Origin: Cladosporium halotolerans
Taxonomy: Eukaryota
Assembly (NCBI RefSeq): GCF_011745625.1
Contig: NW_027191464.1
Span: 1-64,000 of the forward strand
Direction: 5' to 3'
DNA: 64,000 bases
Positions 3,323 through 44,845 of this stretch are shown here, one piece after another. The first letter of the stretch is position 1, and each line of letters opens with the position of its first letter. The position numbers were made by a program, and so were the translations under genes. The notes below the pieces were generated by a model. That model was not told the origin of the DNA. It saw only the letters and a list, made by a program, of their open reading frames with translations, and made no database searches.

Positions 3323-3602
3323 GGTATATGGCGTGGAGGTGTAAGTTGTCGTATCGACTTAGTGGTGAGCCTGTCGGCGTGTCTGTAATGTGCAGAGTGG
3401 CTGATCTTACTCTCGCAGGCAAAGAGCAGTCATGCGATAGATAGGTCGGCCTCTAGACAGCCCTCCAGACCGCCGCCTCCAAAGTCAAAATGACGCAGCG
3501 CAGCAGCGCAGCCCTCGCCGTCCCACTCCGCCCCACACCGCAGCCCGAAAGCCGACGCCCGCCGCCGCGCTGAGAGCCTGAGCGCCTGGCAGCCAGCCGG
3601 CG

Positions 3603-3610
3603 CACGTGAC
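3603..3610. promoter_or_regulatory. CACGTGAC (GTCACGTG) Cbf1-type bHLH E-box in the divergent CUB1/RPP1 promoter
   Basis: Exact 8-mer about 165 bp upstream of the RPP1 ATG. Cbf1 sites are known in some fungal ribosomal-protein promoters. Function here is inferred. Confidence 0.4.
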
Positions 3611-3773
3611 CGCAAACGCCAAGCTCGGCGAAAGTGGGAGTGGGCTTCGAATTTTGGAGGAGCGGCCGGCGCGGAACCTCATTGATCGCATCAACCACCA
3701 CCCAGAGAAGAAGACCTTAACGTACGCTCCAGAAACGTTCTAGGCATCTCACCACACCACACCCACCGCAACA

Positions 3774-4315
3774 ATGTCCAACGCCGAGCTCGCCTCCTCT
3801 TACGCCGCTCTCATCCTCGCGGATGACGGTATTGAGATCACCGTACGTTCATCCTCCCCGGGCTTGACTGGCGCATGCGAAATTCACGAAAAAATTCCAA
3901 CACCCCCATATGAGGGCGACACACCCTCGCGCATGCGCCTGAAGGCCTCGCACGCACACCAGGGACCTCACTGACCGCGAAATTCCACAGTCCGACAAGC
4001 TCCAGTCCCTCATCTCCGCCGCCAAGGTCCCTGAGATCGAGCCCATCTGGACCTCCATCTTCGCCAAGGCCCTCGAGGGCAAGGACGTCAAGGAGCTCCT
4101 CCTGAACGTCGGCTCTGGTGGTGGTGCCGCCGCCCCCGCCGCTGGTGGTGCTGCTCCCGCTGCTGGCGCCGCCGAGGAGGCCCCCGCTGAGAAGAAGGAG
4201 GAGGGTAAGTTTCTTCGCACATTGCCCACACTGCCACGAGCGCATTCGCTGACGGAATTTCGCAACAGAGAAGGAGGAGTCCGACGACGACATGGGCTTC
4301 GGTCTCTTCGACTAA
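3774..4315 (+). CDS. RPP1: 60S acidic ribosomal protein P1; join(3774..3842,3991..4204,4269..4315), 109 aa
   Basis: [36 protein letters not shown]...[16 protein letters not shown], Ala-rich hinge, and the canonical C-terminus [14 protein letters not shown]. Two canonical introns. Confidence 0.97.
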
Positions 4316-5084
4316 GCGTCTCGCACCTTCGACTCTTCACGGCAGGAAAAGGAACAGACCGGCGGGATGGATTCGGCGTAGCTGCCACGGTGGTGTCTTC
4401 CCTCTGGCAAGTGCGCGGCATGGACGGCCAGGACGACATGCGGCGCTCGCTGGGGAAACGGGAAGCTTCATCTGGGATGTTTAGATTCCGCGGCCATAGC
4501 TTGAATGCATGTGGCTTTGTGTCTATGTCAGGAGACCCTTTCGTTTGTGCTTTTCACTGTTATTGTGATGTGAACTGAACGGTGTGGGCTTTTCGTCTTG
4601 CTGAGGATCGAAGTGTGATTTTCTTGATTCGTGACTACGGAGGTCTCGCTCTGCACGCTCAGTCGCTGCAGCTGACTCACTACACGTCTCCTGTGATACG
4701 CCTCGCTCCGACATGCAAATTCCCGCAACAGGACCCAGACTCACAATCATGTCCTTCGTTCTGCCCATGTCTCGTGCACCCTTAGAAAAGCAAATGAAAA
4801 CTCGACTCCGTCCCCTTCGCGTCCCATGCAATATTCCGGATGGTAGCCTGCTTGCCTGCCACCCCTTTCCGCTCAACGTCTGCTTGTCAACAGCCCTCAG
4901 AACCCGATCGAAAGTCCCATGCACAGGTTGATGCCGTCCACTGCCTCTCCAACAAAAACCCGCTCCTCCCGATTACTCCCCCAAATGCCCAAACGCCCCT
5001 TCCCACTCTCCACCCACAAGCCACAAAACAAGAAAGAAAAAACAAGGTGAGGGGGGAAAGAAATCTTACCTCACCGTCCAACAA

Positions 5085-16222: not shown

Positions 16223-17794
16223 ATGCCCGCAAGATCTTCCGGCTGCTTCACTTGTCGAAAGCGAAAAGTCCGCTGTGATGAACGCCGACCTGGCTGTGTG
16301 CGATGTGCCCGCCACGGTGTGCAATGCTCTGGATACCTACGAGAAGAAGGGGCTCTGGACTTCAAAGATCAGACGAGCTCCACAAACCATCGTGCGAATC
16401 TACGGTACCTGAAGATCACGACGTTCCGAGGTGAGGAAGAATCGTTTGAAGGGACAGCTCTGGAGTTCGACAGCAAGATCAAGGCATCGGCCGCTTCATT
16501 GAGTACCACTAATGCTCCGCTCTTCACGATTGAAAACTGCCAACATGGTGTGCCAAACGGCTTGACTAGCGCCAACCTCAACCGAGAACAATTGTATGAA
16601 TCTTTCATGGGAATATTCAACCCTAAGAACATCAATCCTGGATCCCAAGACTTCGACTTCTTCAGAATGCTGGCGATGCTAGCACCTAGTCACTTAGTTC
16701 TACAGGATGGTCTTGATGCCCTGAGCCTGATGCAAATTGGCACGGCTCACGCAGATCAACGACTGCTCGGCGAATCACTCGTCCGATATTGCAAAGCACT
16801 TCGGGGAACAAGACAAGCATTGAACATTGGTGCCCCTGAAGATGCATTGTTCGCGACTGCAAGTGTTCTCGCAATATGCGAGTTCTTCGATCACATCAAC
16901 AAGACTCCGTCGGCTTGGCTTGGCCACCTTGTCGGAGTTGATCAGCTGTTGCTCGTTCGTGGCCCGAGTTCGCTGAAGTCGAAATTATCAATGCTGCTGT
17001 TTTACCAATCACGACATCCTGCCCTGTCAAGGTCTCTGCTACGCCGAAAGGCAGATCCGCTGTCGTCGCTCGAATGGCGAGCAATACTTAAACAAATGCC
17101 TCTGGGGCCTGCTGGAACCTCCATGGAGCTCGCACTACAAGTACCGGAACTGTTGGAACGCTACGACGCACTGGACACCGCGTCTTCAACCTTCTTGTCG
17201 GAAGCTGAAGCGCTCTTGTCTGACTGTCAGCGACTCGATCATGAGTATCAGAACTGGTACACTGACTCGCTACAACCCACCACGAAAACTGACATCGCAC
17301 CTTACTCGACGAAAAGCATCGATAGTTTCCCAACATTCGCCGCTCTGATTCGAAACCGGAAGCTATCAAACGGCTTCGTCTTCGCAGACTCCAAGCTCTC
17401 TTCCCTCTACCGTCAATACTGGTGCTGCCAATACTTCCTCCAAAGCACAATAGCGCAATTGCGCGAGTACCTCCAGACCTCCCCCGACGAGTTTCCCGGA
17501 CAACAACTCGACCAACCTCGCTCAACGAGCGACAGCCATATCGACGAAGTCGTCTTCTCACTCTGCAGGTGCATCCCCGGCCTCGCCGAGCCCATCACTG
17601 GTGCACATGGCCACATCGCGATCTTCTTGCCCTTGCGTATCGCGCTGATGCACTTTCGGTCGAGGAGACTGTGGGAGTGGGTGGGGTGGGCCGAGGAAGT
17701 GAGTGCTGGGGTCTTTTATAGGGGTATCAGGCCACCGGCTATTAAAGATGGGGATTATCCTGAGGCGAAAGCATTGTTGGAAGCCAGTGAGTAG
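16223..17794 (+). CDS. Zn(II)2Cys6 fungal transcription factor, 523 aa
   Basis: N-terminal [31 protein letters not shown] (CX2CX6CX6CX2CX6C), followed by a fungal-specific regulatory region (W.GHL.G...LL.RGP). Confidence 0.93.
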
Positions 17795-17916: not shown

Positions 17917-19393
17917 TTACTCTCTGATCCAATCAAACAACCATCTCCCAAACCACTTTGAAGGAATCTCAATCAGCCAGTACATAGCCTCGGCCGCGGG
18001 AATGGTGACAAGAAGTGTCGCGATGAAAGCTACGCCTGTGGCTTTCGAGTAACCTGACGCATCGTCGCCCATCATGTTGGTCACTGTTTTGATGCCGAGA
18101 GTGTAGACGATTATGGATTGTAGGAGAAAGTAACCTGTGATGTGGTCAGATGCTGATGCGTACGAAGGGTTCTGCCAAGCGGGACTTACTCAAAGATCGT
18201 TTACCGAGCAGAACAAGAAATCTGTTGCGGAAGATCGACTGAAGAACGCTTGAGGTCTCCAGGATGAGGGAGAAACCAATGATGATGAGATAGCAGTCGG
18301 CGCGGATTTGCGCGGCCGTAACGTCGACAGCGTAGTTCAAACCACCGGTGTTGTAGATACCCGTGTGGTAGTAGAGTTCAGCGTTTTGCAGGTCTGGGCG
18401 TGCGGCCGTCCAGATGAACTGCATGGCGAATCCGGCGATCATGAGCAGCGCGCCGACTGCCCAGAATGGAACACGAGTCTTCAAGACGGTGAAGTATGAG
18501 CCGGTTCCACTAGGCCTGAGATCCATGTTCATCACGGCGTCGGCGACGAGAAGACCAGATATTGAATACCACGCCCAAGAGTACACCCACCATGCTGTTA
18601 AGATAAAGGCGAAAGCTCCGATCACCCGCCAGCGAGCTCTTGTGTACGGAATGATGACCGTTGTCATGTAAACCGTGTAGCTCTGTTGGAATACCGCGGA
18701 GATGACCCAGAGCATCTGCGTGGGAAATGCGCGGTTTGCAGCTTGATTCTGGAAATTGTAGGTGGTCCAGAATGTCATGAAGATTGCGTTAAAGTTGGCC
18801 AGAGAATTCGGTAAAATGTACAGGTCGGTGTCCATGGTGTTAATACCGACGCGCTGAGCAAAATCCACGAGGTAGGCATTGCCGTCCGTTCCATGGGTGA
18901 AGGCAAAGTAGACTACGATCAATGCGGCGGCGACTGGGAACCAGAGTCGGATGCCACGACGGAAGACAGTACTTGCGAGAACGATTCTATTAGGCTCCAG
19001 AAGAAATGGCAAACATATTGTTCGAGCTGATAGGAAGATGATGCTTCCATAGATAAGAGTGTCGTTCCAGAACAAGACGGAGAGCGATTTTCGGAGTGCG
19101 AGATGCGCTGCAGAGCCATCTTCTTGATTTGTGCCCTTCACAGCGGCTGGAGTGAATGTTTGCAAGAAGGCCCAGAGAAATGCCATAGGCACTAGGATGC
19201 CTCTAACACCAGTCAGGTAGTCCTGGTTCTTGTCGTATGGCCTTGATGCTGTATTTGGAGATTGCTGTGGCAATCTCTTGGTGATAGAGGATGGCATCCA
19301 GGACGGCAGCCCATCGGGTCTGCTTTGGCGCCCATTCTCAACACCGTTCGGCGCCAGAGGTGAGATGTTCTCATCGCCGTGCTTCACAGCCAT
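17917..19393 (-). CDS. Acyltransferase-3 (OafA/NolL-like) integral membrane O-acyltransferase; join(19393..18190,18134..17917), 473 aa
   Basis: AT3-type motifs DYLTGVRGIL, VFRRGIRLWFP, LWVIS, LGKRSLSYFLLQ and a terminal YWLIEIPS helix; about 10 hydrophobic segments. Intron GTAAGT...CTGAC...CAG. Confidence 0.75.
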
Positions 19394-20199
19394 GGCGATA
19401 CCGTGGTCTTGAACAATCTTTGGCTGATGTAGGTTCCCTGTCCAGGTCCGCCAAAGTGTTACTCGAGTTAGCCTTGCGTCAAGCCCATCCCTTCAAGCCG
19501 TCTATCCCTTCGCGTAGTATCTGTTGGCCGTGTATAGAGTTGACCGTGCTGGCTGACGACGTACTTACCGTTGTCGCTGGCCAACGGCTATGTCTAACAA
19601 GTCTCTGGTCGCTCTGCAGACGGGTGACGCGGCTATCCCCGTCAATAACCCAAGGCTAAGCCGTGCACGATACATGGTTCCAATATCATTTGAGCTAGCG
19701 CGCCACATCCGCATGCATGCATTTGACGGCTGAGAAGTGGGTATGTCTTGACGCAGCAGGATGGTGTGCAGGTGAAAGCAGGGTTGGGATGCGGAACCGG
19801 CTTGGCGCGCCAGCTTCACTCCTCCAGATTGGCTGGTGTCAAGGAGAATTGCTTTTACACTTCGGCCCCTCAAATCCATCAAGAGCAAGCTCAGTTCGCT
19901 GAGGCTTGGTATATGGCACCTCGCCAGTCAAGGTTCACTGGCGTGATGTTGGCCCGCCATCGCTTTGGAGACTCCACGGGCGTACAACGGTCCGAACGGG
20001 TCTCGCGTGCAGACATCTTTCGAGCAGACCAGCAGCCTTGTCATGCATAGCGCTACCACTGATAGACCGTCGACGCCACATCATATCGATGGCGTGCACA
20101 GATAGGTCTTGCGGCTCTCGCTTCTGAAGGCCCGGGACGTGTCACGGCGACTGCTGTCCCGTCTGCAATATCACCTGGGCACGACCGAGTCAGTAAGGC

Positions 20200-21669
20200 A
20201 TGGCTGCAGCTGTCGACATGGACGAGAAGAGTGGTGCAGCACCTGCTGTGCTCGAACAACAACTAGGCACTGCTCAAGCAGTGCAAGTACAGCAGCCCGA
20301 GCAGCCTGCAGACTTACCACAGTCATCAGGCATGTTGACCACTCTCTGGCGCTGGACACCGGCCATCTTTATGGTGTCCTACTTCGTCTTCTCAATATCG
20401 ATATACACCCTGGCACCAAGAGAAGCAGTCAAAGTCCTCTGGTTTCTATACTTGACCATTGGAACTTTGCTCGCTGGCACTACTCTGCTGGAGAGTTATG
20501 ATGGTTTGTCACTGCTAAGAGAGGCACGAAAGACGACCGCAAAGGTCGCTAGATCTGGCTGGAAAACTGATGCTCAACTTCCATATGTCGAGCTAATTCT
20601 GGACGATGCGGACGGCAGTGGACACGAGCGTCTGCACGCACTTCGTGAGAGCATCGCCTACCCGACCGAGAGACTACGCATCACTCTGCTCCCTGACAAT
20701 GGAGACGACGGCGCATTAGTCCATCATCTTTGTCACCTACAAGACCGCCAATCTGGATCACTGCCTGAATTTACCGCTATCTTTCGTGCCTCGCAAACAC
20801 CACATCCTCACGCTGTCAGGCACGCTGTGGAGCGGCTAGTGTCGGACAAGAAGATCGACTTCGTGCAAAGCAGGAGTGTTCTGATTTGGCCCGCCGGCGT
20901 CTCGACATTGAAAGCAATCTACTCTTCGCTGGCTGCTTTCCAACACGACGCGATTAACGGCCTCGTCATACCCGGGCGATCCTTGACCTGGGGTTTGCCT
21001 TTATCACACGGCAGCGCTATCTTCGGCCGGACATCAGCCCTGCAAAATGCGGCCGGAGCGCTGAAAGGCGCCTCTAGCAGACACAATGGTCCCGCCCTTG
21101 CTTTCTCTGCTTATGCTCAGAATCTCAAATCAGCACACGATCTCAGCGTTGTCACGTACACCCAATGCCCACCATCGCTGCTCGGCTGCATACGCATGCA
21201 GATTGAATCGACTGCTGAGTGGGTAGCGGGCCTGCCATATGTCGCGCTGGCATTCACCAAGATGAAGCAAAACTCGGCACCGAGCGAGAAATCAGACACC
21301 AACCCTGCAGGTCGTACCCTCAAGCAGCGCACCAGCATCCTCTTTGCGCTGGTCCTGACCCGCTTGGGTTCACACGCGGTCTTGCAATACTTCAGCCTCG
21401 CGCTCGCGCTTCTCTTCAACGAGGCGCCTCATTCGGCTGCGGAGTTCTCGACGCTGATATTCTTCCCTTACCACATATCTATCTGGCTCATCGTATCAGG
21501 CCTGATATGCCTTGTTGGGACGGTTGCCATGGCTCACAAAGCAGCGTCTGAGTATGCGCCTCCCTCATGGGCATTCCCGTTCTTGGTGGTGTTGTACCCT
21601 TTCATGCTATTGGTACAGGCGTTCGTGGACGTATACGCGCAAGCTGGGATTTTTCTGGGAGTCTTGTGA
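20200..21669 (+). CDS. Membrane-bound glycosyltransferase family 2-like protein with degenerate catalytic motifs, 489 aa
   Basis: Two N-terminal TM helices, a soluble GT-A-like domain (LPYVELI, IAYPTERLRI, PHPHAVRHAVERL, IDFVQSR, PGRSLTWG, HDLSVVTY) and three C-terminal TM helices. No DxD, TED or QxxRW motif. Confidence 0.7.
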   Translation: MAAAVDMDEKSGAAPAVLEQQLGTAQAVQVQQPEQPADLPQSSGMLTTLWRWTPAIFMVSYFVFSISIYTLAPREAVKVLWFLYLTIGTLLAGTTLLESYDGLSLLREARKTTAKVARSGWKTDAQLPYVELILDDADGSGHERLHALRESIAYPTERLRITLLPDNGDDGALVHHLCHLQDRQSGSLPEFTAIFRASQTPHPHAVRHAVERLVSDKKIDFVQSRSVLIWPAGVSTLKAIYSSLAAFQHDAINGLVIPGRSLTWGLPLSHGSAIFGRTSALQNAAGALKGASSRHNGPALAFSAYAQNLKSAHDLSVVTYTQCPPSLLGCIRMQIESTAEWVAGLPYVALAFTKMKQNSAPSEKSDTNPAGRTLKQRTSILFALVLTRLGSHAVLQYFSLALALLFNEAPHSAAEFSTLIFFPYHISIWLIVSGLICLVGTVAMAHKAASEYAPPSWAFPFLVVLYPFMLLVQAFVDVYAQAGIFLGVL

Positions 21670-22621
21670 CCGGAGATCGGGTCAAACAAACAAATGCACA
21701 TAATCCTAATCGGTTTCACGTCGGATGTAGAAAAATCGTCAAACGTTACGCATTGCGCTCGTGCTCCCGCACATGTCAGCTGCAGGCCTTGCATTGCCCG
21801 CCTTATCATAGTCACACAGTAAATGTAGCAGAATGATCATTAATAGCCTGCCTAGCTGCAAGACAGCCATGCAGTAGCTGCAATTCCTGGTAGGGCCGCG
21901 TCATCGCTCTGCAGGTAGCCCCGATCACGCATGGGCGATGCTATGCGGTAGTGCATGTGGACTTTCGCATGGGTGACCGGGATTGCCATGCTGCGAGGCG
22001 AGCGCCACCGAAGACTCTCTGGGACTGATGGAAAAAGACTAAAATGGTGCCACGGGCGAGAGCATGGGCTTCTGACGCTGATCAGATGTTGTGGTATTTT
22101 CCCTCAGACGATAGCTCAGCCCTGTACGGAAAATATTGATAGAGTTGCTCCACTCCACCCACGTTACCCTTGACGTGACCAAGAAACATCGGCATCTACG
22201 GCAGACGGAGGATTGAAGCTGCAGCACCAAGTGCTTGGAAGCGGAAAGCCGAGAGCTCTGGCTCCGGAACCAGGCACACGCTGCAGAGGGTCAGCCAGCG
22301 CCACCCAATTCCGCAAACGCCTCCCCTCCTCTCCGCACCAACGGCTCGCGCGCCAAAATATCTAGCCTCGATGGGGGATGCTCGATAGCAGCGGCGATCC
22401 TTGAGCCCTCGCGATTAGCTGCGTTATAACTGGCCCTACTCGGCCTTGTCTCGCCTCACGTGGAGCGGCGTGCGGTGGTGGGTTCGCTGGCATGGCGGGC
22501 AAGTAAGTGCTTTCTTCTTCCTCTTTGCTGTCGTCTGGAGTGATATCTGTACGCCTCATTGTTATTCCGCTGGTGTGTCGTGGGTTGGCGGTGATGTACG
22601 GTCGTTACTTCTGATATAGCC

Positions 22622-25600
22622 ATGACTCCGTCCTGGCTGCCGCTCGTTGTTTTGATCTATGCGGGCCTATTTGGCCTGGCGCATGGACAGAATGAGACCG
22701 ACACCGGACAGCTACTCGAATCGAGCGACAACAATGCCGACAACGAGGATGGACTGAATGGCGCCACAGGGAGCGGTGAAGCTGAAGATATTGCTTCCAG
22801 TGTCGTCCCAGCCGACTGCCACTGCGGCTTCCTCGACCCAGTGACCGGCCGCTCATATACGGACTCGCTAATTGTGTATTTCAACGAAACCGGAGAGCTT
22901 GGCGACGCCTTCAATGTCTCGAGCTATGAGCACCCGTACGAGAAAGGTTGGGGCATCTACTTCCGCGAAGGTGCTCTTGAATCGAATGTTTACTACGAGA
23001 ACGGCTCGACTTGGAATCTGTCCCCGGGATGGCTCAACCTCAACGTGTCCGCAAGAACATCAGACCACCTGGTGAGCGGCGCAGAAATCGAGACGAAGCG
23101 ACAGGATATGCTGTATGGTACTTTCCGGACATTCCTGCGCTCAGCGGCACCTTATGCGGGCGGCGGCAGTGCGCTCTCGATGAGGCTGCTGCATAACGAT
23201 AGTATCTCGGCGGAGCTAGATCTTCTCAGCATGGACGACTCCGGCAACACGGCCAAGTTTGCTGCCACTACGAATGGGCAAATTCCTTTGTCCGAAAACA
23301 CTGTGAACTACACGACTCTGCAAGGTCCAGATTACAACCAGAGCCCTTGGGACTTCTGGGAGTATCGCATGGATTGGAATGAGGAGAACATCGAGTGGTT
23401 TTCTGGAGTCAACAAAACTCGGGCTATGCCGGCAGCCAACTGGACTGTGCCTGTCAGTTTCTCGCTCAAGCATTGGTCGTTGGGATTGCCAAATTGGATG
23501 CAAGGGCCTCCTCTCAACGACAGCGGTGCCGCAGTTGGTTGGATGAGGCTATTCTTCAACTCCTCTGTGAGTTCTTCGGACGAGCGGCCTCTCAATTGTT
23601 CGACAGAGCACTACTGCTCTACAGAGGACGAAACCCTGAGGGTCAGTACTCCATTCACGGCAGCTATGGAAGTGAAACCTGGGGATCTCCTTGAAATCGA
23701 TGAAGATGTGGAGAGCCGAAGCACTGTCGCTATCGCTTTGGCGATTGCGAGCGTAGTGGTCACTTCTGCCTTGATTATACTTGGTCTGTCGAAGAAAGCC
23801 ATCTCAAAGAAGCCGGCCGCAAGACCGCCTCTTAAGTCACACCAATCTGACGTCGAGCTCGGCCAAGTACAGACAACTGGGTATCAATCCCGCGGACCAT
23901 TCAAACGCTCCAGCAACGACATGCGACGACCGATGCCGGACAAGCATCAATCGATGATCAGCCAGAATCCCCTGCTTGAACAGACCGACTCGCAAGCTGG
24001 AAGCTCTGTCCACCTTGGTGGGTTTGCAACGCCTTTCGAATCTAGAGATACTCTCCAGTACAGCATGCACGACCGGCGAGATTCTGTAAAAAGCCCATTC
24101 GGCCCGGTGGATTCCATCACGCCTACTTCTAGCGACCGCGTGTATTCTTCTCAAGCGGGTTGGGAGGAAGAACAGCATCATTTACGCCACCGCGTTCTTC
24201 CTGCCAGCGAGGGCCTTGATACAGGGAGTTCCCGAGCTCTTCCCAACGACTCGAAAGTCGAATCGGTCGTAGCAACAGGCAGCGCACTCCCAGCTGAGAA
24301 TAATGCTGGCCTTGCTGGTGCAGTACCTGGTGCAAATGAGGCTTTAAAGCTATCCGACCCTATGGCAGCGTCTGCGAAGCCAGTGGCTGCGGGTCAGATA
24401 CCGCAACAGCGTACCCGAGTTGATTACTTGGCCGGACTGGTTGCTCTTTGCTCCCTTCTGGTGGCAAGTACTCACTTTGTACTCACCTATGCTCCCTCCA
24501 CCGTCATGGAATATATTGATCAACATTACACGAGTGAGTACTGGGCTCGACGCACGATCGAACCTTTTTTCTTCAACAACATTTGGACCGGCCTGTTCTT
24601 CACCACCTCGACTCGGTTTCTGACCACAGGATATCTACGCAAGGGCGACCTCAAATTCATTGCCGAAAAAACAGTGTGCCGGACACCTAGATTCATGATC
24701 CCCATTGTCTCCGTCATCTTACTAGAATACTTTCTGATGGATGTGGGTGCTGTGACCTATTTGGAGTATCTCCCCAGCATTACCTGGTCACCCTGGCCTA
24801 TGACTTCAGTTTACCCCAATTTTGGATGGTTCATCAATGAGACATTACAGCTTATTTACTTGATCCCAAACGCGGCACCGCAGTTGACATGGAATTACTG
24901 CACAGGTAAGGAAAGAATCATGTGACTACAGAACACCCGCTGACATCCCCATAGGAGTTCTATGGACGATTCCAGTACAGCTGCAAAACAGCTGGCTCGT
25001 ACTCCTTGGGGTCGTTGTCATCATGGAAATCAAGACTCCCTGGAAACGCTTCAGCTATTATGCTTTCTGCATCGTCAACCACTGGTATGCACTATCCTGG
25101 GGATCATATTTCTGGTGTGGTCTCCTTCTAGCCGACCTCGACATCACCTTCAAGTACCGCAAGTACATCCAGTCTCGCGCCTACGTCCTCTACCCACTCA
25201 TCATCCTCGCCTGCATCATGGTATTCTGCTCACTAGGAAATGACCTTCTTTCTGTCTGGACAGGCTACTCCTTCTCCACCAACGAAAAAGGCATCCACCC
25301 CGAGATTACGACTGGCCTCCGAATCCGAGTAACTCCATCCCATGGATACCCAGAATACACCCAGCCCAAACTCAACGGCCTGGTGGGCTGCGTGGGCGCG
25401 CAATTCATCGTCGAGATATCTGTCTGGGCGCAGAAGTTCCTGACCACCAAGCCTTTCTTGTTTCTATTCCCGCACGTCTTTACGATCTATCTGATTCACG
25501 GCCTCGTCTTCTGGTCCATCGGCAGCCTGGCCTGCGTTTACTTCGCTTCAATTGGCCTCGAGTACTGGGTCAACATCTTACTGGTGGCGTTGATCAGCTT

Positions 25601-25802
25601 CTCCACTTTGTTCCTTATCTTGCCTGTTGTGACGCCTGTTATGGAGATGCTGGGCAAAGAGATGACAAGGAATATCTGGCTTTCGGCGAGCGAGGAGCCG
25701 GTGGCGTGGAAGCCGACTAGCTGGCCGCTTGAGAAGGAAGAGGTGGAAGCGGGGTTCAGCGATTCGACTTCGCCGAGGAGGAATGTCAATTTGGAATCAT
25801 AA
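22622..25802 (+). CDS. GH16-like (ConA/beta-jelly-roll) ectodomain fused to an acyltransferase-3 membrane domain; join(22622..24905,24955..25802), 1043 aa
   Basis: Signal peptide; GH16-like domain (CHCGF, VSGAEIETKRQDMLYGTFR, FWEYRMDW, LKHWSLG...WMQGPP); one TM helix; disordered linker; AT3 domain (RVDYLAGL...HF, FFTTSTRF, CRTPR, LWTIPVQLQNSW, FTIYLIHG). The 49-nt intron GTAAGG...GCTGAC...TAG joins the two ORFs in phase. Confidence 0.8.
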
Positions 25803-26305
25803 TAGTAATAGTAATCAGCAAGCACAGGCGGCTACATCTTGTCGGATCCTTGCGAACGAATGCATGCATGACGCCAAATCACGGCTGATATCGATCGTAC
25901 AACCGTTCATCGCGCTCCCCAGCGACAGTGCAATTGGTAGTCAAAGCTGCCTTCACCGGTCAATCGCAGAATATTGCCAAGAGCCAGAAGCCTTCTTTCC
26001 GCGATGCTTGAGTCGAGAGCGGAGACGTTGGTCGCCGAGGATGAAGCGTAGGATTCGAACTTCGGATGTCGGCACTGCGATGAACAACATGATTCGACGA
26101 TGACTTGACGCTGGGCTGAGAGATCGTGGCGGAGCTGCACCCAACCCCGGTTTCTGAACGATCAAAAACGGCCGTTCTACTGCTAGAAGGGAGGCTTGGG
26201 CTGTGCTGAGGTGAGTGACTACGTCAAATTCAGAGACAGCAGGGCTCTTGGACTTGCACCTTACATCCTACTCTCTATCAGAGACATAATCATATCATCA
26301 CAACC

Positions 26306-27705
26306 ATGTCGGCACAATCACATACAGGGCAGCCGGCCCATCCTGACCCAGAGAAGGCTGGAACGACAGACTTGATCGAACACGCCCCGTCGAATGAGAC
26401 TCCCAAAGACACCAAACCGTGGATTGCCCTCGATACCGCTGATTTTTGGCAACTGTCTACCTTCGACAAGCTTGGGGCGGTCTTCCAAGTGTCGACGGTC
26501 GTCCTATGCATCCTCCTCTGTCCCACAGGCCTCGTGGACTCTTTCAGATCCGACTTCACCAACTGCGACGACAAGTCGCCGTTCCCGCAAGCTGTGTTGT
26601 CTGCAATCTTGGCCCTTTGTCTTTGTAGCTTGGCCGGAGGGTTGTCATCCGCCATTGGCACCGCTCGCATTGTAATCACAGAGTCGAATGGTTTGACGCC
26701 GGATGCGAGGGAGAGGAGAAGAGTGCGGGCGCCTCGCTACCTGCTTGCTGCTGTCGTGCCTGGCCAGTTCCTGGCCGCTTTGATGCTTGGTCAGACTGCG
26801 TATCGGACGGCACAGGCGTATCTAAGCTGGAGCCCAGTGCCTGTCCTCGCTATTGTAGCTTTGTAAGTCACTGATACTCGGAGAGAGCCTGAGGGAGGAA
26901 CAAGCTGACTTCAAATAGTTCTGCTTGCATGGCATCCGGTCTCTGGAATGCCATCTTGGCTCTCTTAATCCATCGCACGACTTGGAGCCCGGTGGACCTC
27001 AAGGTCTCCGAAGGTATGACAGCCTGCGACATCGCACTTCCCCAACCACATCGCTGACATTGCATCCCCCAGAGAAATCCAATAACGAAACCGCCGAAGA
27101 ATCTTCCAACGATCAAAGCTGGCTCTTCGACACCACCCTCCAATCCTTCCTCTCCCTCCCCGCCCTCGACCGCGCCGCAATCCTAGCCAACCCTCTCGCC
27201 CTCGCCTCAGGCCTCGCTGTAATTCTCACCACCAGCGCCCTCCTCTGGACCGAGCCCTGCGGCACCAAAGAGCGCAAAGCGCTCATGGAGGCGTCTGAGA
27301 CGGCTACTCAGGTCGTCTGCGCCACGTTGTCCATGCACATGACGATCGTGCCGGTGCTGCAGTTCCGCGCTGGCCAGCCTTTCAAGGGCGAGAAGCCGAA
27401 GCGCTGGGCGGTCGGGTTCCCGGCTGTGTTCTTCTGTATTCATGGTGGGCTGCTCGTGGCGTTGGCTTACACGATGCGGACTTCTACCTATGGTCTACAG
27501 CTCGTGCGAGCACAGGAGTGCGTTGCTGCGTGAGTAGTGCCTGTTTGATTTAACCGTTCGTGGACTGGTTGCTGATCTTTTCCCTAGGGTCATGTATTTC
27601 ACGTGCGGAGTGTGCAGCTTCAAGCTCATGCTCAACACGAACTTCAACGAGCCTTTGCCGCAAGAAGAGACTGTTGAGGCCGATGCCGGCACTCGCAATG
27701 AGTGA
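26306..27705 (+). CDS. Hypothetical multi-pass membrane protein with weak TPT/nucleotide-sugar-transporter resemblance; join(26306..26862,26919..27013,27073..27529,27588..27705), 408 aa
   Basis: Four exons join in phase through GTAAGT, GTATGA and GTGAGT introns, each with a GCTGAC/GCTGAT branch site. About 8-9 hydrophobic segments. The family assignment is tentative. Confidence 0.6.
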
Positions 27706-28234: not shown

Positions 28235-29788
28235 CTAGAGAAAGTCCTCAGCTCTCTTCCTCGCGCGGCCCTTGATGCGGCCATCGAACAACTCCTTCCC
28301 ACCGTTCGGAGCGGCAGCACCAGGAGCACGATGCGGAAACAGTTCCTTAGCCAGTTTCGCGCCGCGCTCTCTGTTGGTGCTCGCGCCGAGGATGGAGAAA
28401 CCAGGCTCTGCGTTGCCGGCACCCTTGAAGCTAAATCCCTGGTCTTGATCGTTGCTGCGCAGACGGCCGTTATTGTTCGGCCCGCCGGAGACGCGCGAGA
28501 ATAGGTCGCGGCCGCCTTTCGGGGCGTCGTTCGAGTTGCGCCCTGCGCGGCCGGGTCCTGGATTATAGTAAGTAGCTGCGTCGTGTGTGGCGCCGTCTAA
28601 GCTGTACTGACCAATTGCCGTGGCGACTTCGTCCAGGCCGATATCGCGCGCTTCTTGGCGGCGGTGCTGGGCCTTGTCTGGGAAGAGCTCTTTGCTGCCG
28701 TTCGTGGTGCGGTCGGGGAAGAGGTCGGCGGTGTTGCCGTTCGTGGGCTTTCTGGGCTGGGGCGCCTGGCCATTCGATTTGAGGGCGGAGGTCGTGCCGC
28801 GGTCAGGGAAGAGCTCGTTGGAGCGCGCGAGGCGGGCTTCTTGGTTTTCGCGTGAGCGGCGGAGGCGAGGCGGCGTGGCGGAGCGTTGGCGGGCGGTGCG
28901 GCGGTAGGGCTGCTCTTCGGAGAAGCCGTAGCGGCCGTCGCCGTCGCGGTCGGGCGAGGCGCTCCTGTATCTGTTGCGATCACTGCGGAGTCTGCCATTG
29001 TCCCTACCTGCGAATAGATCCCCGCCGCGATCAGCTCTTCTGCGACCACTATAGCTGTCGGCCGACGAAACACTAATCCGTCGAGCAGACGCTTCCGGCG
29101 CAGGAGCATCGTCGTAAAAGTCCACGTTGAACGGGGTTCCTTGTTGCGAGTTGCGTCTGTGCATAATCTCGTCCGCCGATTCACGCCTGTTCCTCTTGTA
29201 CCGAGGCCCGTGGTCTCTGACATTCTTTCTCTTCTTCGGTCTGGAGTCTGGGTCGTGCTCCGGATTCATCAAGTAGAATCTGCTCCTGTCCTTCGCACCC
29301 GGAGCCTTCACATCCGCCTCAATGGCCATGCGCGCCTGCAATTGTACCCCACCCAGCGCTTCCAATGGCTTCACCGCACGCAGCCTGACCGGCTCACTCT
29401 CGTCTTCCGCCGAAAGCGCCGCAAGCGCATCCGCCGCAGCCTCCTCCGTGTCAAAGATGAGGTTTGCGCTCGTGTCATCAATCCACTGCAGGCGCCTGTA
29501 CAGCTCCGTATTGCAAGCCTCGCGCATGCCATCCTCGATCTTCCTCGTAGTCAAGTCGTCCAAACCGCGCAAGTGAACCTTGAAAGGCACAATAGCGTTC
29601 GGATCGACTTCTCCCTCCTCGGGTGCCTGCTCGATGCCATTCATGGCCTCGTCGGCAGCGGCGGCTTCTTGCGCCTGCTGCTGTGCGCGCGCGTTGATCG
29701 CATCGGCTTCGGCCTGCATGCGCGCGACCTCGGGGTCGAACTCCATGTCGATATTCATATCGATGTCCATGTCTGCGTCGGTAGCCAT
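28235..29788 (-). CDS. NCBP3: Nuclear cap-binding protein subunit 3 (DUF2414-type RRM-like domain), 517 aa
   Basis: KVHLRGLDDLTT, LQWIDDTSANLIF and K..GA.DRSRFYLMNP, followed by an Arg-rich tail with repeated (D/E)LF(P) motifs, ending KRAEDFL. Confidence 0.82.
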   Translation of the reverse strand: MATDADMDIDMNIDMEFDPEVARMQAEADAINARAQQQAQEAAAADEAMNGIEQAPEEGEVDPNAIVPFKVHLRGLDDLTTRKIEDGMREACNTELYRRLQWIDDTSANLIFDTEEAAADALAALSAEDESEPVRLRAVKPLEALGGVQLQARMAIEADVKAPGAKDRSRFYLMNPEHDPDSRPKKRKNVRDHGPRYKRNRRESADEIMHRRNSQQGTPFNVDFYDDAPAPEASARRISVSSADSYSGRRRADRGGDLFAGRDNGRLRSDRNRYRSASPDRDGDGRYGFSEEQPYRRTARQRSATPPRLRRSRENQEARLARSNELFPDRGTTSALKSNGQAPQPRKPTNGNTADLFPDRTTNGSKELFPDKAQHRRQEARDIGLDEVATAIGQYSLDGATHDAATYYNPGPGRAGRNSNDAPKGGRDLFSRVSGGPNNNGRLRSNDQDQGFSFKGAGNAEPGFSILGASTNRERGAKLAKELFPHRAPGAAAPNGGKELFDGRIKGRARKRAEDFL

Positions 29789-42538: not shown

Positions 42539-44845
42539 TTACTCAAACACCAACTCCCCACCCACGTTCCCCACCCTCTCCTCCAACCTCACCAAATTCC
42601 TCTGCCAGCTCTTCCCATCCCCCGCCTCAACCTCCATCACCGTCCCCTCGCCGCCCACCAACCCCAAACCCCTACAGCTCGCCACAACCCCCCCTCCCCG
42701 CTGCCACGTCACCTTCCCCCACGTATTGACAAAGCACGCGTCCAAATCCAACCGACTCTCCCTCCACTCCCCCTCCCCCTGCCCCCCATACCGCACCGCG
42801 CACTCGCCCACAAGCCACCTGCCCCCCTCGACCCTCAGGCCCCTCACGCTCGCCGCGTCCGCCAGCCCGCCCCGGAACACCGCCGCGCGCGCTTTCATCC
42901 CCTTCCGCGCAGCCGCAAGATATGTCTCCGCGGCTTTCGCCACAATCCCCCTCACCTGCTCCGCCGGCATCTTCGGCCGCCGGTCGTACGTGTACAGGCC
43001 GTTGGTCTCCTGCTCGATGTCCGTCGTCTGCGTGTAGACGAACCCCCCGCACAGCCCGCTGTGCACGACGGCGCCGCAGAGCGCGGCGAAGCGCGCGAGC
43101 AGGTCGTCCGTCGACGAGGCCGTCGTGTAGCCCCAGCCGCGCTCGTGGTGCGGGTCCGCGCCGCTGGCGCCGGAGGTGATGTTGACGCCGCCGAACTCGG
43201 AGCAGAAGACCGGCGCGTGGGGCGTGTGGGCGCTGCCGGCGTCGGGCATGGGGGGGGTGTTGGTCGGGGGCAGGAAGAGGGGGCGGCCGGTGGTGGTGAT
43301 GGAGTGCAGGGTGGCGGTGCGCTGGGCGAGGGTCGGGGCGTCGGCGTAGTCGTGGAAGGTGGTGAGGTCGGTGGCGACGTGCTCCCAGCCGCAGTTGTCG
43401 TTGATGGGCCGGGTGGGGTCCAGCGTCTTGGTCTGGTAGTACAGGCTGCGGACGTGGTTGCGGTGGTGCGGGTTGTGGCTCAGCTCGCTGTAGCCCCAGC
43501 TCTCGTTAACGGTCGTCCAGGCGACGACGCACGGGTGGTTGATGTCGCGCTTCACGGCTTCGGTCCACTCCTGGTCGAAGCGCGCGGTCATCTCGCCGCC
43601 GAAGTCGTACGGGCTCGCCATCTCGCCCCAGACGAGGAAGCCCAGCCGGTCCGCCCAGTAGTGGAAGCGCGGGTCTTCGACTTTCTGGTGTTTGCGGCAG
43701 CCGTTGAAGCCCATGGCTTTGGAGAGCTCGATGTCCTCTTTGAGGGCGGTGGGGGTTGGTGGGGTCATGAGGGAGCTGGGCCAGTAGCCTTGGTCGAGCA
43801 GGAGGGCTTGGAAGTAGGGGTGGTTGTTTAGGCGCAGGGTGCCGTCGCCGTTAGCCCAGCTGATTTGGCGCATGCCGGTGGTGGTTTTGGCTTCGTCGAT
43901 TTGCTTGTCGGAGCCGTCGAAGAGTCTGATCGTGATGTCGTAGAGCTGGGGGAAGTCGGGGGACCAGAGAGCGACGCCGTTCAGCCAGGCCATGTCGTTG
44001 TCGAGCGGTGCTTTCTTGGTGACATCCTCGGGCAGACTCTTCAGCTGCTCGGGCGACATGCGCATGCCCAGGTTAAGAGCGATGCGCTTCGCGACGGGCA
44101 TTTCTGCTTTCGAGCTGGTGGCGACCACTTTGCCGGCGAAGCTCGACTCCAGCTGCACGCTGTACTTCTCGCCTGCCTTCCGGCCGAGCACAGCAACGGT
44201 CGCGTGCAAGGTGCCGCTCTCGATGTCGTGGGATCGTAGGATCGTCCCGTTGCTGCTGTCAGCCAGTCTAGTCGCCGGCACAGATTCCAGCCAGACGTTC
44301 TGCCAGATTCCGCTGGAAGGCGTGTAGAAGATGCTCTCGGGCTTCGGGCCCCAGAACTGCTTGCCGCGCGGCTGCGTGACGTCCGTGGCGGAGTCGAAGA
44401 CTCGCAGCGTCAGTTTGTGAGAAGCCGCTTGGCCAGAGAAGGCGTCCGTGATGTCGATGTCGAATGGCACGTGGCCGCCACGGTGGCCTCCGACGTAGCT
44501 TCCGTCAACCCAGACGGTGCATTCGTAGTCGACAGCTCCGAAGCGGGCGAGGATGCGGTCTTTTCTGTCCTTCTGCGAGGAAGTGCGAGGGTCTTCGATT
44601 GCTCTCTCATACCACAGGACCTCGTGGATGCTCTGCTCGTTGATGCCTGAGGCGGGAGCCTGGAAGACGTAGGGGACTTGGATGGTCTTCAAGACGTTCT
44701 TAGGGATGCCGTTCTTGTGCCATTGCTCATCGAGGCCTTCGTCCTTGTCGTCGAAGACGAAGTCCCAAGGGCCGTTCAATGAGACCCATGATTGCTCGCG
44801 TGTGAAGTCTGGGCGAGGGTAGGCATCGGCGGCTTGTGATGACAT
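42539..44845 (-). CDS. Glycoside hydrolase family 2 (beta-galactosidase/glucuronidase-like) with a C-terminal CVNH domain, 768 aa, intronless
   Basis: YPRPDF...LNGPWDF, RFGAVDY, QPRGKQ, YTPSSGIWQNVWLE, LDQGYWP, GFNGCRKHQK, catalytic NESWG and SEFGG, YTQTTDIEQETNGL. The last ~110 aa follow the CVNH pattern (L.GEC...GEWRES.LDLDACF.N..G...W...G....SCR...L.ERVGN.GG.L.F). Confidence 0.9.
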   Translation of the reverse strand: MSSQAADAYPRPDFTREQSWVSLNGPWDFVFDDKDEGLDEQWHKNGIPKNVLKTIQVPYVFQAPASGINEQSIHEVLWYERAIEDPRTSSQKDRKDRILARFGAVDYECTVWVDGSYVGGHRGGHVPFDIDITDAFSGQAASHKLTLRVFDSATDVTQPRGKQFWGPKPESIFYTPSSGIWQNVWLESVPATRLADSSNGTILRSHDIESGTLHATVAVLGRKAGEKYSVQLESSFAGKVVATSSKAEMPVAKRIALNLGMRMSPEQLKSLPEDVTKKAPLDNDMAWLNGVALWSPDFPQLYDITIRLFDGSDKQIDEAKTTTGMRQISWANGDGTLRLNNHPYFQALLLDQGYWPSSLMTPPTPTALKEDIELSKAMGFNGCRKHQKVEDPRFHYWADRLGFLVWGEMASPYDFGGEMTARFDQEWTEAVKRDINHPCVVAWTTVNESWGYSELSHNPHHRNHVRSLYYQTKTLDPTRPINDNCGWEHVATDLTTFHDYADAPTLAQRTATLHSITTTGRPLFLPPTNTPPMPDAGSAHTPHAPVFCSEFGGVNITSGASGADPHHERGWGYTTASSTDDLLARFAALCGAVVHSGLCGGFVYTQTTDIEQETNGLYTYDRRPKMPAEQVRGIVAKAAETYLAAARKGMKARAAVFRGGLADAASVRGLRVEGGRWLVGECAVRYGGQGEGEWRESRLDLDACFVNTWGKVTWQRGGGVVASCRGLGLVGGEGTVMEVEAGDGKSWQRNLVRLEERVGNVGGELVFE

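Follow-up and report, generated by a model that had tools for sequence, protein, structure and literature searches.

Gene models and transcription of the locus

The locus described here raises the question of whether a run of neighboring genes for membrane proteins constitutes a pathway for an acylated surface glycan, as a preliminary description had proposed, and if so, which of these genes belong to it. The genes, named A, B, C, and D, occupy positions 17917-27705 of the window, which is the whole stretch of 64,000 nucleotides of Cladosporium halotolerans DNA that was analysed. Both the gene models (Table 1) and the splicing seen in run X3 confirmed four consecutive membrane-protein genes at the coordinates first given. 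All 5 of the predicted introns (1 in A, 1 in C, and 3 in D) were exactly skipped in X3 contigs, while a contig from run X2, which is probably genomic, retains the predicted introns. Transcription of the genes, which had been put forward as a check, was seen for all four in the one RNA-derived assembly of X3. By hydropathy, A contains about 10 TM segments, B 6, C 10-11, and D 8.

The spacer between the divergent genes A and B, estimated earlier at about 800 bp, measures 806 bp. Transcript contigs of X3 stop at 19574 on the A side and start at 19871 on the B side, leaving about 296 bp uncovered, where these positions are contig limits that may differ from the true transcript ends. The spacer is likely to act as a shared bidirectional promoter. 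The cluster had also been placed between housekeeping genes; its downstream neighbor is an NCBP3 homologue, but the upstream one, a Zn2Cys6 transcription factor, is a regulator and no housekeeping gene.

Table 1. Features of the A-D locus (nucleotide positions in the window) and of protein C (amino acid positions, aa).
Feature	Position	Strand	Remarks
Zn2Cys6 transcription factor (upstream flank)	16223..17794		
Gene A, stand-alone AT3-like	19393..18190 + 18134..17917	minus	intron 18135..18189; 473 aa
A-B spacer	19394..20199		806 bp, between divergent A and B start codons
Gene B, GT2-like	20200..21669	plus	one ORF, 489 aa
Gene C, GH16-like::AT3 fusion	22622..24905 + 24955..25802	plus	1043 aa
GH16-like ectodomain of C	22799..23671 (limits approximate)	plus	PF00722 stretch = aa 146-272
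AT3 domain of C	24416..25700	plus	broken by intron 24906..24954
Gene D, multi-TM	26306..26862, 26919..27013, 27073..27529, 27588..27705	plus	4 exons, 408 aa
NCBP3 homologue (downstream flank)	28235..29788		
C, signal peptide	aa 1-22		
C, GH16-like ectodomain	aa ~60-350		14 N-glycosylation sequons, 4 Cys, ELDLLS at catalytic-motif position
C, TM anchor	aa 373-391		
C, cytosolic linker	aa 392-598		polar, disordered, about 206 aa, poorly conserved
C, AT3 domain	aa ~599-1010		Val607 at Arg position, invariant His618, RxxR R687..R690

A, B, and C are a conserved module

Homologues of C were found at 64 metagenome loci, which were grouped into 43 distinct clusters. Wherever the 5' end of C was seen together with at least 4 kb of upstream sequence, homologues of both A and B lay within ~5.3 kb of C (19/19 distinct clusters); when at least 2.5 kb of upstream sequence was required, B was present in 21/23 clusters and A in 20/23. 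This linkage was kept through 3 different gene orders and orientations, and the trio carries consecutive NCBI locus tags in Meristemomyces, Oleoguttula, and Acrodontium. A tblastx comparison of locus L023 with 15 loci showed conserved blocks for A, B, and C only, with changing flanks. Because the arrangement was found at all 19 testable distinct loci and the flanking DNA is not conserved, it is far beyond what chance would produce. The three genes A, B, and C make up a conserved membrane module, derived from a cluster that is widespread in Pezizomycotina, and their linkage extends across deep divergence.

The conserved unit consists of A, B, and C only, and D lies outside it. D had been counted as a fourth member, a transporter-like protein that would export or handle the product. 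It shares the strand of C and follows it after 503 bp, a single X3 contig runs from the 3' part of C through D with the 3 introns of D skipped, and D-like genes follow C at loci L006 and L011. However, a contig over two genes is no proof of a single transcript, and these two loci were the only cases among the 27 clusters with at least 1.5 kb of downstream sequence. D was missing beside C in the other 25, and at L003 and L009, NCBP3 follows C directly. Nor did sequence searches match the protein to a transporter or any other known family: 1.84 billion representatives contained 17 relatives, a Pfam scan of 15 members gave no consistent match, a comparison with the PDB gave nothing at E<0.7, and its best Atlas score (0.82) was to unnamed clusters. 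A four-gene cluster that includes D is therefore highly improbable, and D appears to be a recent, fast-evolving, lineage-restricted neighbor.

B is a retained pseudoenzyme in the window's lineage

In the product of B, two TM helices at the N-terminus are followed by a GT-A domain and by further TM helices at the C-terminus. In 16 canonical orthologues, whose loci are metagenome contigs, the DxD, TED, and QxxRW motifs are all kept, and the motif regions read LPNE, SKADNLN, D[AC]DH, F[CT]GSNG, LTEDIDS, and QR[LM]RW. In the window, R-A-S stands in place of DxD (AIFRASQTPHPHA), the SKADNLN region is deleted, and HNGPA and QIESTAEW are found where TED and QxxRW are expected. All six regions, which serve in UDP-sugar or metal binding or as the catalytic base, are lost or deleted, and of the 104 GT-A core columns with a conservation of 90% or more in canonical forms, only 30 are kept. 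DxD, TED, and QxxRW are likewise all missing from loci L001, L003, and L012, and from 29 members of alignment A2. The residues replacing DxD vary within this degenerate clade (R-A-S, G-A-D, S-G-N, or S-G-G).

The window protein gave no match in Pfam or NCBIfam, and the profile of its family gave 0 matches in the PDB; PF13641 was matched by 7/29 relatives and PF13632 by 4/29. Compared by hhalign, B and its canonical syntenic orthologues align with a probability of 100% (E 4e-70), and B retains the synthase fold, with GT-A domain and TM channel. The orthologue at L023 matches PF13632 at 9e-21 and aligns to BcsA with DxD, TED, QxxRW, and FFCGS in register, while the profile of the canonical orthologues matches BcsA at 2.7e-11. 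The best NCBIfam match of a canonical orthologue was PgaC_IcaA (1.8e-22), at 79.9 bits against an equivalog cut-off of 422.

In an unrooted tree, a single branch with a support of 100/100 separates canonical from degenerate B, and the gene is inverted in the window's lineage. Change probably ran from canonical to degenerate, as the canonical motifs match those of bacterial and plant synthases. B remains under purifying selection, with a pN of 0.17-0.18 against a pS of ~0.7, similar to A and to the GH16-like domain, where all such estimates are rough because dS is saturated. B is a lineage-specific, retained pseudoenzyme, whose orthologues elsewhere are canonical processive synthases. With B catalytically dead, the window holds no supplier of polymer.

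It could be argued that B is still an enzyme, having gained a new active site or a non-processive activity after its motifs were lost. Its fold is kept, purifying selection persists, and the degenerate family has invariant residues of its own (PHPHA.R.A..R, PGR..TW, D314, H392, and Q396). Against this stand the loss or deletion of every motif region and the variability of the replacing residues within the degenerate clade. Moreover, PHP and VQxR are common to the canonical forms, and therefore point to scaffold rather than to a new site. We consider a surviving activity of this kind very improbable.

A GH16-like ectodomain fused to an AT3 domain

At least 148 relatives of C were found. The match of its ectodomain to PF00722 is sub-threshold (19.5 bits against a cut-off of 22, E 7e-4) and is the sole Pfam match among A to D of the window, but PF00722 was matched by 34/41 relatives, at best with 2.1e-8, and the C profile matched the lichenase 2r49 (3.6e-5) and Crf1 6ibu (1.5e-4) in the PDB. 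As a reference, we take the GH16 catalytic motif to be E-x-D-x(x)-E. Reading the aligned rows by eye, we found the acid/base Glu of this motif to be missing in 41/41 family members, which carry N, S, or P there. The first Glu and the Asp vary as well, as in SLNLLS and TVNLEN. By these residues, the ectodomain is a GH16-like domain predicted to be catalytically degenerate, and the earlier suggestion that both carbohydrate-active parts of the cluster are degenerate holds for C as well as for B.

The exon pieces of C gave no PF01757 match in the Pfam scan, but 19/41 relatives matched this family (E<=0.01). Their matches covered positions 6-325 of the 326 of the profile and scored 24.6-32.6 bits, where the cut-off is 31; among 6 relatives scanned singly, only P0062 exceeded it. 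In the R-X10-H motif, His618 is found in 41/41 family members and Arg or Lys in 0/41 (Val in 40/41, Ile in 1/41), in a register backed by Pfam coordinates and by what we take to be the consensus letters of the PF01757 HMM. The RxxR motif is kept (R687 in 41/41, R690 in 40/41), as is the His of a C-terminal YLxH (40/40). This AT3 domain has the lowest pN in the cluster (0.04), making it the most constrained part, whereas the linker is the least conserved (pN 0.32-0.39), and a search of the linker for a conserved motif found none.

A second AT3 paralogue

The family of A counts 375 relatives. The window protein matched no Pfam family at E<=0.1, while 6/40 sampled relatives matched PF01757 (E<=0.01); two that were scanned individually reached 27.4 and 21.4 bits, below the cut-off of 31. 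These matches span profile positions 53-304 or 60-325 only and leave TM1 uncovered. A fits AT3 by its TM segments and by homology to the AT3 domain of C over the whole domain, to which it aligned by hhalign with a probability of 99.1% (E 7e-19, 422 columns). In the register of that alignment, TM1 of the window protein keeps Arg64 and has Ala75 at the His position of R-X10-H; across the family, Arg is found in 39/40 and His in 0/40, with V, T, A, M, I, or C instead. The first cytoplasmic loop carries RxxR (R146..R149; R146 in 40/40, R149 in 33/40), another loop motif, E339-x3-H343, is invariant, and Gln is found in 31/39 at the position of the C-terminal YLxH His of C. In these alignments, the two AT3 paralogues break R-X10-H in complementary ways, A having Arg without His and C having His without Arg.

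The AT3, GT2, and GH16::AT3 identities given in the preliminary description were thus recovered through homologues and profile-profile comparison, and for B also through its fold; these assignments of A, B, and C rest on relatives, as the window proteins score below Pfam gathering thresholds. Its overall interpretation stood as regards identities, degeneracy, and the linkage of A, B, and C, and was not supported as regards D, either as a member or as a transporter. The orthologues are linked in related genomes, all four genes are transcribed in one RNA-derived assembly, and relatives of A, B, and C match the expected profiles, so that none of the outcomes named beforehand as refuting the preliminary description was observed. 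Two features had been overlooked: the lineage-specific pseudoenzyme state of B and the complementary breaks in the AT3 pair.

Proposed function and alternative readings

On balance, we lean towards reading A, B, and C as a synthase-dependent glycan O-acylation module, in which the synthase has become a pseudoenzyme in the window's lineage, a function that we infer from sequence. Ancestral B would have been a processive family-2 glycosyltransferase embedded in the membrane, of the same type as BcsA, hyaluronan synthases, or PgaC/IcaA, which polymerised a beta-linked glycan from cytosolic nucleotide sugar and extruded it via its own TM channel. Outside the membrane, the GH16-like ectodomain of C, a predicted jelly-roll that is presumably glycosylated and disulfide-bonded but catalytically dead, may serve as a glycan-binding module, while the AT3 domain of C would take acyl groups from acyl-CoA in the cytosol and move them to the outer side of the membrane. 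A, the second AT3 paralogue, could acylate a second position, as with GumF/GumG, or cooperate with C. A wall or extracellular glycan bearing O-acyl groups would result, and the module would be a fungal counterpart of bacterial systems that combine a synthase with AT3 proteins, such as icaADBC. In the window's lineage, B may have become a non-catalytic subunit that holds the glycan, forms a channel, or provides a scaffold, which would leave A and C to modify a glycan that some other enzyme polymerises.

Several observations count against this acylation module. A dead B leaves it without a polymer source in the window, and its three window proteins are all below Pfam gathering thresholds. Furthermore, R-X10-H has been called "absolutely conserved", with roles described for Arg14 and His25 of OafB (PMC9833829), and both paralogues violate it, so that either or both may be inactive or act otherwise. 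The violations themselves could point to an obligate two-subunit acyltransferase formed by A and the AT3 domain of C, with acyl-CoA captured by A and transferred by C, or with a consecutive relay, and with B or its relic docking both at the extrusion site. The losses are reciprocal and family-wide, C also keeps the YLxH His where A mostly has Gln, the two families align over their AT3 domains, and the genes are always adjacent (19/19). In the OafB model, however, both Arg14 and His25 are contributed to one pore by the same TM1, which makes supply by two chains structurally awkward (PMC9833829), and two AT3s in one cluster may simply acylate different positions, as with GumF/GumG (PMC9558356). 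We regard such a two-subunit enzyme as unlikely. Equally speculative is a more elaborate form of the preferred reading, in which the trio is an unrecognised, Pezizomycotina-wide pathway for a synthase-dependent acylated surface glycan. Its obligate AT3 pair would split the relay, the Arg of A holding acyl-CoA and the catalytic His of C working beneath a cap formed by the lectin-like, dead GH16 domain; following a single inversion event in Cladosporiales and Mycosphaerellales, B would have become a non-catalytic glycan-conducting or docking subunit, and acylation would have been re-targeted to the polymer of another synthase.

The module might also act away from polysaccharide altogether, with the AT3s acylating a glycolipid, glycoprotein, or secreted metabolite, or with C, through its lectin-like ectodomain and linker, serving as a cell-wall sensor. 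The single-pass ectodomain and 206-aa polar linker of C give it a layout that we liken to wall-stress sensors, and B is catalytically dead in the window. The targets of eukaryotic AT3 proteins are described as essentially unknown (PMC9558356). On the other hand, the linker lacks a conserved motif and is the least conserved part of C, the strongest constraint falls on its AT3 domain, and the presence of a canonical polymer synthase in the ancestral cluster argues for a glycan. Overall, we consider these roles rather improbable and retain the acylation of a polymerised glycan as the working model.

Relevance

Many plant pathogens, black yeasts, and lichen fungi belong to the filamentous ascomycetes, whose minor surface glycans are, to our knowledge, poorly known; likewise, we know of no fungal AT3 protein with a known substrate. 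The trio is a concrete candidate, open to testing, for a new polymer synthase that comes with acyltransferases of its own. B offers a natural experiment in which one lineage retains the synthase as a pseudoenzyme, while the unusual AT3 pair bears on how the R-X10-H motif works, and a dead GH16 domain in place of SGNH would be a new AT3 partner domain. Any effect of the product on wall hydrophobicity, adhesion, or immune recognition would make it relevant to pathogenesis and stress tolerance.

Comparison with known systems

Among bacterial systems, the module most resembles icaADBC, which makes PNAG, in that the gene for a small, membrane-embedded, processive GT2 (IcaA) adjoins that for a stand-alone AT3 (IcaC). 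IcaC is an AT3-only protein believed to add O-acyl groups to the polymer while its synthesis and export proceed in a coupled manner (PMC9558356). The canonical B orthologue has PgaC_IcaA as its best NCBIfam match, but its score of 79.9 against 422 bits means that B is not an orthologue. The fungal cluster also differs in having two AT3 paralogues, one of them fused to a dead GH16-like domain, in lacking an IcaB-like deacetylase and IcaD, and in the catalytically dead B of the window. GumF/GumG of xanthan, both stand-alone AT3 proteins, provide a parallel for two AT3 paralogues in one glycan cluster, where a separate target position is plausible for each (PMC9558356), although in a bacterial pathway of the Wzx/Wzy type that is not synthase-dependent. 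OafA, OafB, and OatA (AT3-SGNH) share with C the RxxR motif and the fusion of AT3 to a globular domain outside the cytoplasm, which contacts, or in C would contact, the glycan acceptor. In C, however, this domain is a predicted GH16-like jelly-roll rather than SGNH, without a transferase triad; it is N-terminal, behind its own TM anchor and a cytosolic linker of roughly 200 aa; and Val or Ile replaces the R/K of R-X10-H in 41/41 sequences.

With respect to membrane-integrated processive GT2 synthases, window B has none of the motifs of BcsA, hyaluronan synthases, chitin synthases, CesA/CslF6, and PcManGT. Phenotypes have been described for the fungal GT2s ZtGT2 (PMC5653360) and Tft1/CelA (PMC4344333, and a 2026 preprint). 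A partnership like that proposed for C is known from Ghs2-Bgs3, in which a membrane protein with a GH16 domain is paired with a glucan synthase; in Kre6/Skn1/Ghs2, a membrane-anchored GH16-type ectodomain is an obligate synthase partner near the extrusion pore (PMC13612389). Unlike C, these proteins have a type II topology and a GH16 cleft that is presumed to be active, and they lack an acyltransferase domain; the synthase that they partner is a GT48 glucan synthase, and no clustering of the genes is reported. Finally, Cryptococcus Cas1p belongs to another Pfam family, has another partner domain (esterase-like), and has no linked synthase gene, but it is a fungal surface-glycan O-acetyltransferase of the same superfamily, in which a globular domain is combined with a 10-TM acyltransferase (PMC2824669).

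Organization and transcription of the locus

The stand-alone AT3-like gene (A; AT3, acyltransferase-3 family, PF01757) and the GT2-like gene (B) are divergent, with 806 bp between their start codons, close to the 800 bp estimated in the preliminary description. They are followed by C, which encodes a fusion of a GH16-like ectodomain to an AT3 domain, and by D, a multi-TM orphan gene. The nearest named relatives of the window belong to the Cladosporiaceae: B shares 69% identity with a protein of Cladosporium fusiforme, and A shares 70% with one of Rachicladosporium. The Zn2Cys6 gene is convergent with A, and their stop codons lie about 120 bp apart.

Coordinates of genes and other features in the window
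Feature	Position	Strand	Length	Remarks
Zn2Cys6 transcription-factor gene	16223..17794	+		flanks the A-D cluster on the A side
Gene A	exons 19393..18190 + 18134..17917	-	473 aa
E-x3-H motif of A	18365-18379			E339..H343
Gene B	20200..21669	+	489 aa
Shortened segment of B	20720-20760			about aa 175-186
Gene C	exons 22622..24905 + 24955..25802	+	1043 aa
E-x3-H motif of C	~25400
Spliced X3 contig	24575-27705			3' part of C to D
Gene D	four exons, 26306..27705	+	408 aa
NCBP3 gene	28235..29788	-		flanks the A-D cluster on the D side
Separate ORF	42539-44845	-	768 aa	glycoside hydrolase family 2 domains and a C-terminal CVNH (cyanovirin-N-like lectin) domain

Five introns in A, C, and D were predicted from GT..AG signals. 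Contigs assembled from one sequencing run (X3) skip 5/5 of these introns exactly and leave the A-B and B-C spacers uncovered, while a 12-kb contig from a second run (X2) retains the introns. This suggests that the X3 contigs are derived from RNA and thus that A, B, C, and D are all transcribed and spliced as modeled, an origin read solely from intron skipping, as none of the runs with these contigs is recorded as RNA. A spliced X3 contig reaches from the 3' part of C through a 503-bp spacer into D, and continues for 253 nt past the compared stretch. It may reflect overlap of the C 3' UTR with the D 5' UTR, or read-through from C; a single contig over both genes is not in itself proof of one transcript. 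In L023, a metagenome-contig locus, the A ortholog (3456-5048, minus strand) has the intron at the same position as in the window, in frame and free of stops, so that the ORF stays open across it, by about 55 residues rich in proline and histidine. A false insertion of this stretch in automated gene calls is possible.

Family assignments

The proteins of the window itself appear too divergent for Pfam, and their identities were fixed through relatives. The sole Pfam match was GH16 on C (19.5 bits, under the cut-off of 22), and Pfam and NCBIfam scans of A, B, and D gave no match. The C family comprises at least 148 proteins, typically of 1000-1200 aa, many of which carry PF00722 and/or PF01757 (34/41 and 19/41 sampled relatives, respectively); among PDB sequences, its profile matches GH16 lichenases (2r49, 3.6e-5) and Aspergillus Crf1 (6ibu, 1.5e-4). 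The A family (375 proteins, with PF01757 in 6 of the 40 sampled) aligns with the C-terminal domain of C over 422 columns (hhalign probability 99.1%, E 7e-19), indicating that A is a paralog of the AT3 domain of C. For B, only 57 word-index matches were obtained, all from Cladosporiales/Mycosphaerellales-type fungi, with PF13641 in 7/29 sampled relatives. Its Atlas neighbors are ascomycete 'GT2-like' clusters (score 0.97, 200 shared features), and its family profile gave 0 matches to PDB sequences at E<=1. Relatives and profile comparison thus bear out the AT3, GT2-like, and GH16::AT3 identities first proposed for A, B, and C.

Conserved linkage of A, B, and C

Metagenome contigs were pattern-scanned with the C alignment, which yielded 64 loci in 43 clusters at >=93% nucleotide identity, and these were searched by tblastn with the spliced gene models of the window. 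Clusters were counted only if the 5' end of C was visible and enough upstream DNA was present; the other 24/43 were too short. Homologs of both A and B were found within about 5.3 kb in 19/19 clusters with >=4 kb upstream of C, while at >=2.5 kb upstream B was found in 21/23 and A in 20/23. Three arrangements occur: the window has A(-)B(+)C(+), most distant loci have A(-)B(-)C(+), and the third is B(-)A(+)C(+). A tblastx comparison of the 22-kb L023 with 15 other loci gave exactly three conserved blocks, corresponding to A, B, and C, and no conservation of the flanks, bar one near-identical locus. The three genes also have consecutive NCBI locus tags in Meristemomyces frigidus (LTR08_004378/79/80), Oleoguttula mirabilis (LTR36_009899/900/901), and Acrodontium crateriforme (R9X50_00186000/100/200), and named C homologs are present in Dothideomycetes, Eurotiomycetes, Lecanoromycetes, and Leotiomycetes.

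The conserved unit is therefore A-B-C, without D. Only 17 relatives of D were found among 1.84 billion representatives, and Atlas, PDB profiles, and Pfam gave no consistent match to a transporter or to any other family. Among 27 clusters with at least 1.5 kb of sequence past C, D lies 3' of C in just two, L006 and L011, which are close relatives, and NCBP3 directly follows C in L003 and L009. The preliminary description, which had proposed a cluster of four genes including a transporter-like D, was thus correct in most respects for A, B, and C, whose synteny is retained, and wrong for D.

When the Zn2Cys6 gene was tested as a cluster regulator, 0/64 loci gave a tblastn match, although this null result is weak evidence since such proteins diverge fast.

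Motifs of the AT3 paralogs

The available text of PMC9833829 terms R-X10-H in TM1 of AT3 proteins 'absolutely conserved', and RXXR is described as a second AT3 motif there and in the corresponding parts of PMC9558356. With the motif register taken from the hhalign alignment of A and C and backed by Pfam coordinates, both paralogs appear non-canonical at the sequence level, each carrying the half of R-X10-H that the other lacks.

AT3 motif residues among sampled family members
Residue or motif	A family	C family
Arg/Lys of R-X10-H	Arg 39/40	Val 40, Ile 1 of 41, never Arg/Lys
His of R-X10-H	0/40	41/41
RXXR	R146 40/40, R149 33/40	R687 41/41, R690 40/41
His of C-terminal YLxH	Gln 31/39, no His	His 40/40

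In addition, A and C have in common an invariant E-x3-H loop motif between TM helices, both residues of which are present in 40/40 A family members. We did not find this motif described among AT3 motifs in the portions of the AT3 literature that were available.

The GH16-like ectodomain of C

C of the window carries ELDLLS at the E-x-D-x-x-E position. The acid/base Glu is present in 0/41 aligned C sequences (columns read by eye), with Asn in most and Ser or Pro otherwise, and the first Glu and the Asp of the motif vary as well. The domain is thus predicted to be catalytically dead throughout the family, in agreement with the degeneracy first suggested for the window. It follows a signal peptide, has four conserved Cys residues, and holds 14 N-X-S/T sequons versus 2 elsewhere in C, features suggesting that it faces outward. 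Between it and the AT3 domain lie a TM anchor and a polar linker of 206 aa.

B as a putative pseudo-synthase

B orthologs in 16 distant clusters contain all of LPNE, SKADN[LI]N, D[AC]DH, F[CT]GSNG, LTEDIDS, and QR[LM]RW, the full set of hallmarks of processive membrane GT2 enzymes; two partial orthologs (L020 and L057) agree over their extent. The L023 ortholog matches PF13632 (9e-21) and PF13641 (5e-16), and aligns with the cellulose synthase BcsA with DxD, TED, QxxRW, and FFCGS in register. A profile of the 16 canonical orthologs matches BcsA at 2.7e-11, and the top bacterial family is PgaC/IcaA, at 1.8e-22, a match so far under the cut-off of the model that it indicates kinship of class only.

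The B family of the window aligns with these canonical orthologs end to end (hhalign probability 100%, E 4e-70, 388 columns, 26% identity). However, each of the six motif regions has been replaced or deleted in the window, in L001, L003, and L012, and in 29/29 sampled family members, and of the 104 GT-A columns with >=90% conservation in canonical B, just 30 are kept. In a maximum-likelihood tree, a single branch, about 2 changes per site long and with 100/100 support, separates the 29 degenerate from the 16 canonical sequences, which is compatible with a single degeneration event. The tree is unrooted; a change from canonical to degenerate is inferred because the canonical motifs match those of bacterial and plant synthases. 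Degenerate B is co-directional with C in all cases seen, the window and 5 clusters (L001, L002, L003, L006, and L012), whereas canonical B is divergent from C in 18/18 clusters.

Motif loss coincides perfectly with this inversion of B, and degenerate B is also divergent from A. The clade of the window lacks about 26 residues, the counterpart of the canonical SKADNLN region, that Teratosphaeriaceae-type degenerate B retain, suggesting that erosion of the GT-A core went on after the catalytic residues had vanished.

The B ORF is nonetheless intact, as the preliminary reading of a degenerate but intact gene had it, and B is transcribed. Estimates of selection, which are rough since dS is saturated, gave pN 0.17-0.18 and pS 0.68-0.72 for B, on a par with A (pN 0.18) and with the GH16-like domain of C (pN 0.15-0.19). 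Elsewhere in C, pN was 0.32-0.39 for the fast-evolving linker and 0.04 for the AT3 domain, which is under tighter constraint than any other part of the cluster. A confident AlphaFold model of B (pLDDT 82.7, pTM 0.81) gave Foldseek E-values down to 8e-11. Taken together, B appears to be a synthase turned pseudoenzyme under purifying selection, rather than a decaying gene. Scans of bacterial and archaeal genomes with the canonical B and A profiles gave 69 and 71 pattern matches, respectively, without a relative among them, so that a bacterial origin of B or A is neither supported nor excluded.

Proposed function and relation to known systems

Gene content, homologies, the fold of B, motif states, linkage, purifying selection, and transcription are directly supported by these data. 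Beyond these, we propose that the ancestral trio formed a synthase-dependent pathway, in which B would make and extrude a beta-linked glycan. The lectin-like GH16 relic of C would bind this glycan and its AT3 domain would acylate it, while A may add a second acylation or cooperate with C. In the lineage of the window, synthase activity would have been lost, but the B protein is kept. B would then be a subunit without catalytic activity, serving for holding, as a channel, or for docking, and A and C would act on a glycan from another source. We lean towards this account as a whole.

Other readings are less probable. The complementary halves of R-X10-H could mean that A and C form an obligate pair with a split motif, which we regard as unlikely, and slightly more doubtful still is a non-glycan or sensing role for the module. 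That B, with its six motif regions lost and its ORF under purifying selection, has become a neofunctional enzyme seems improbable. Least probable of all is the original four-gene version with D as transporter, given the lack of a consistent family match for D and its rarity beside C.

In main texts from part of the journal literature, we found no paper linking AT3 to GH16 or GT2 in fungi, nor a description of the A-B-C cluster or of a GH16::AT3 fusion. Term look-ups in the available parts of the GH16 subfamily roadmap, the Neurospora GH16 and ZtGT2 papers, and the AfTFT1 preprint returned no mention of an acyltransferase. A-B-C is a real, deeply conserved fungal trio that varies the known synthase-plus-AT3 theme in a new way, through a lineage-specific pseudo-synthase and an unusual split of the AT3 motif, both predicted from sequence. 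Precedents for the layout of the trio are IcaA/IcaC in PNAG synthesis, GumF/GumG, and AT3-SGNH fusions, as covered in the available text of PMC9558356, and Ghs2-Bgs3, in which a GH16-domain protein partners a glucan synthase (available text of PMC13612389).
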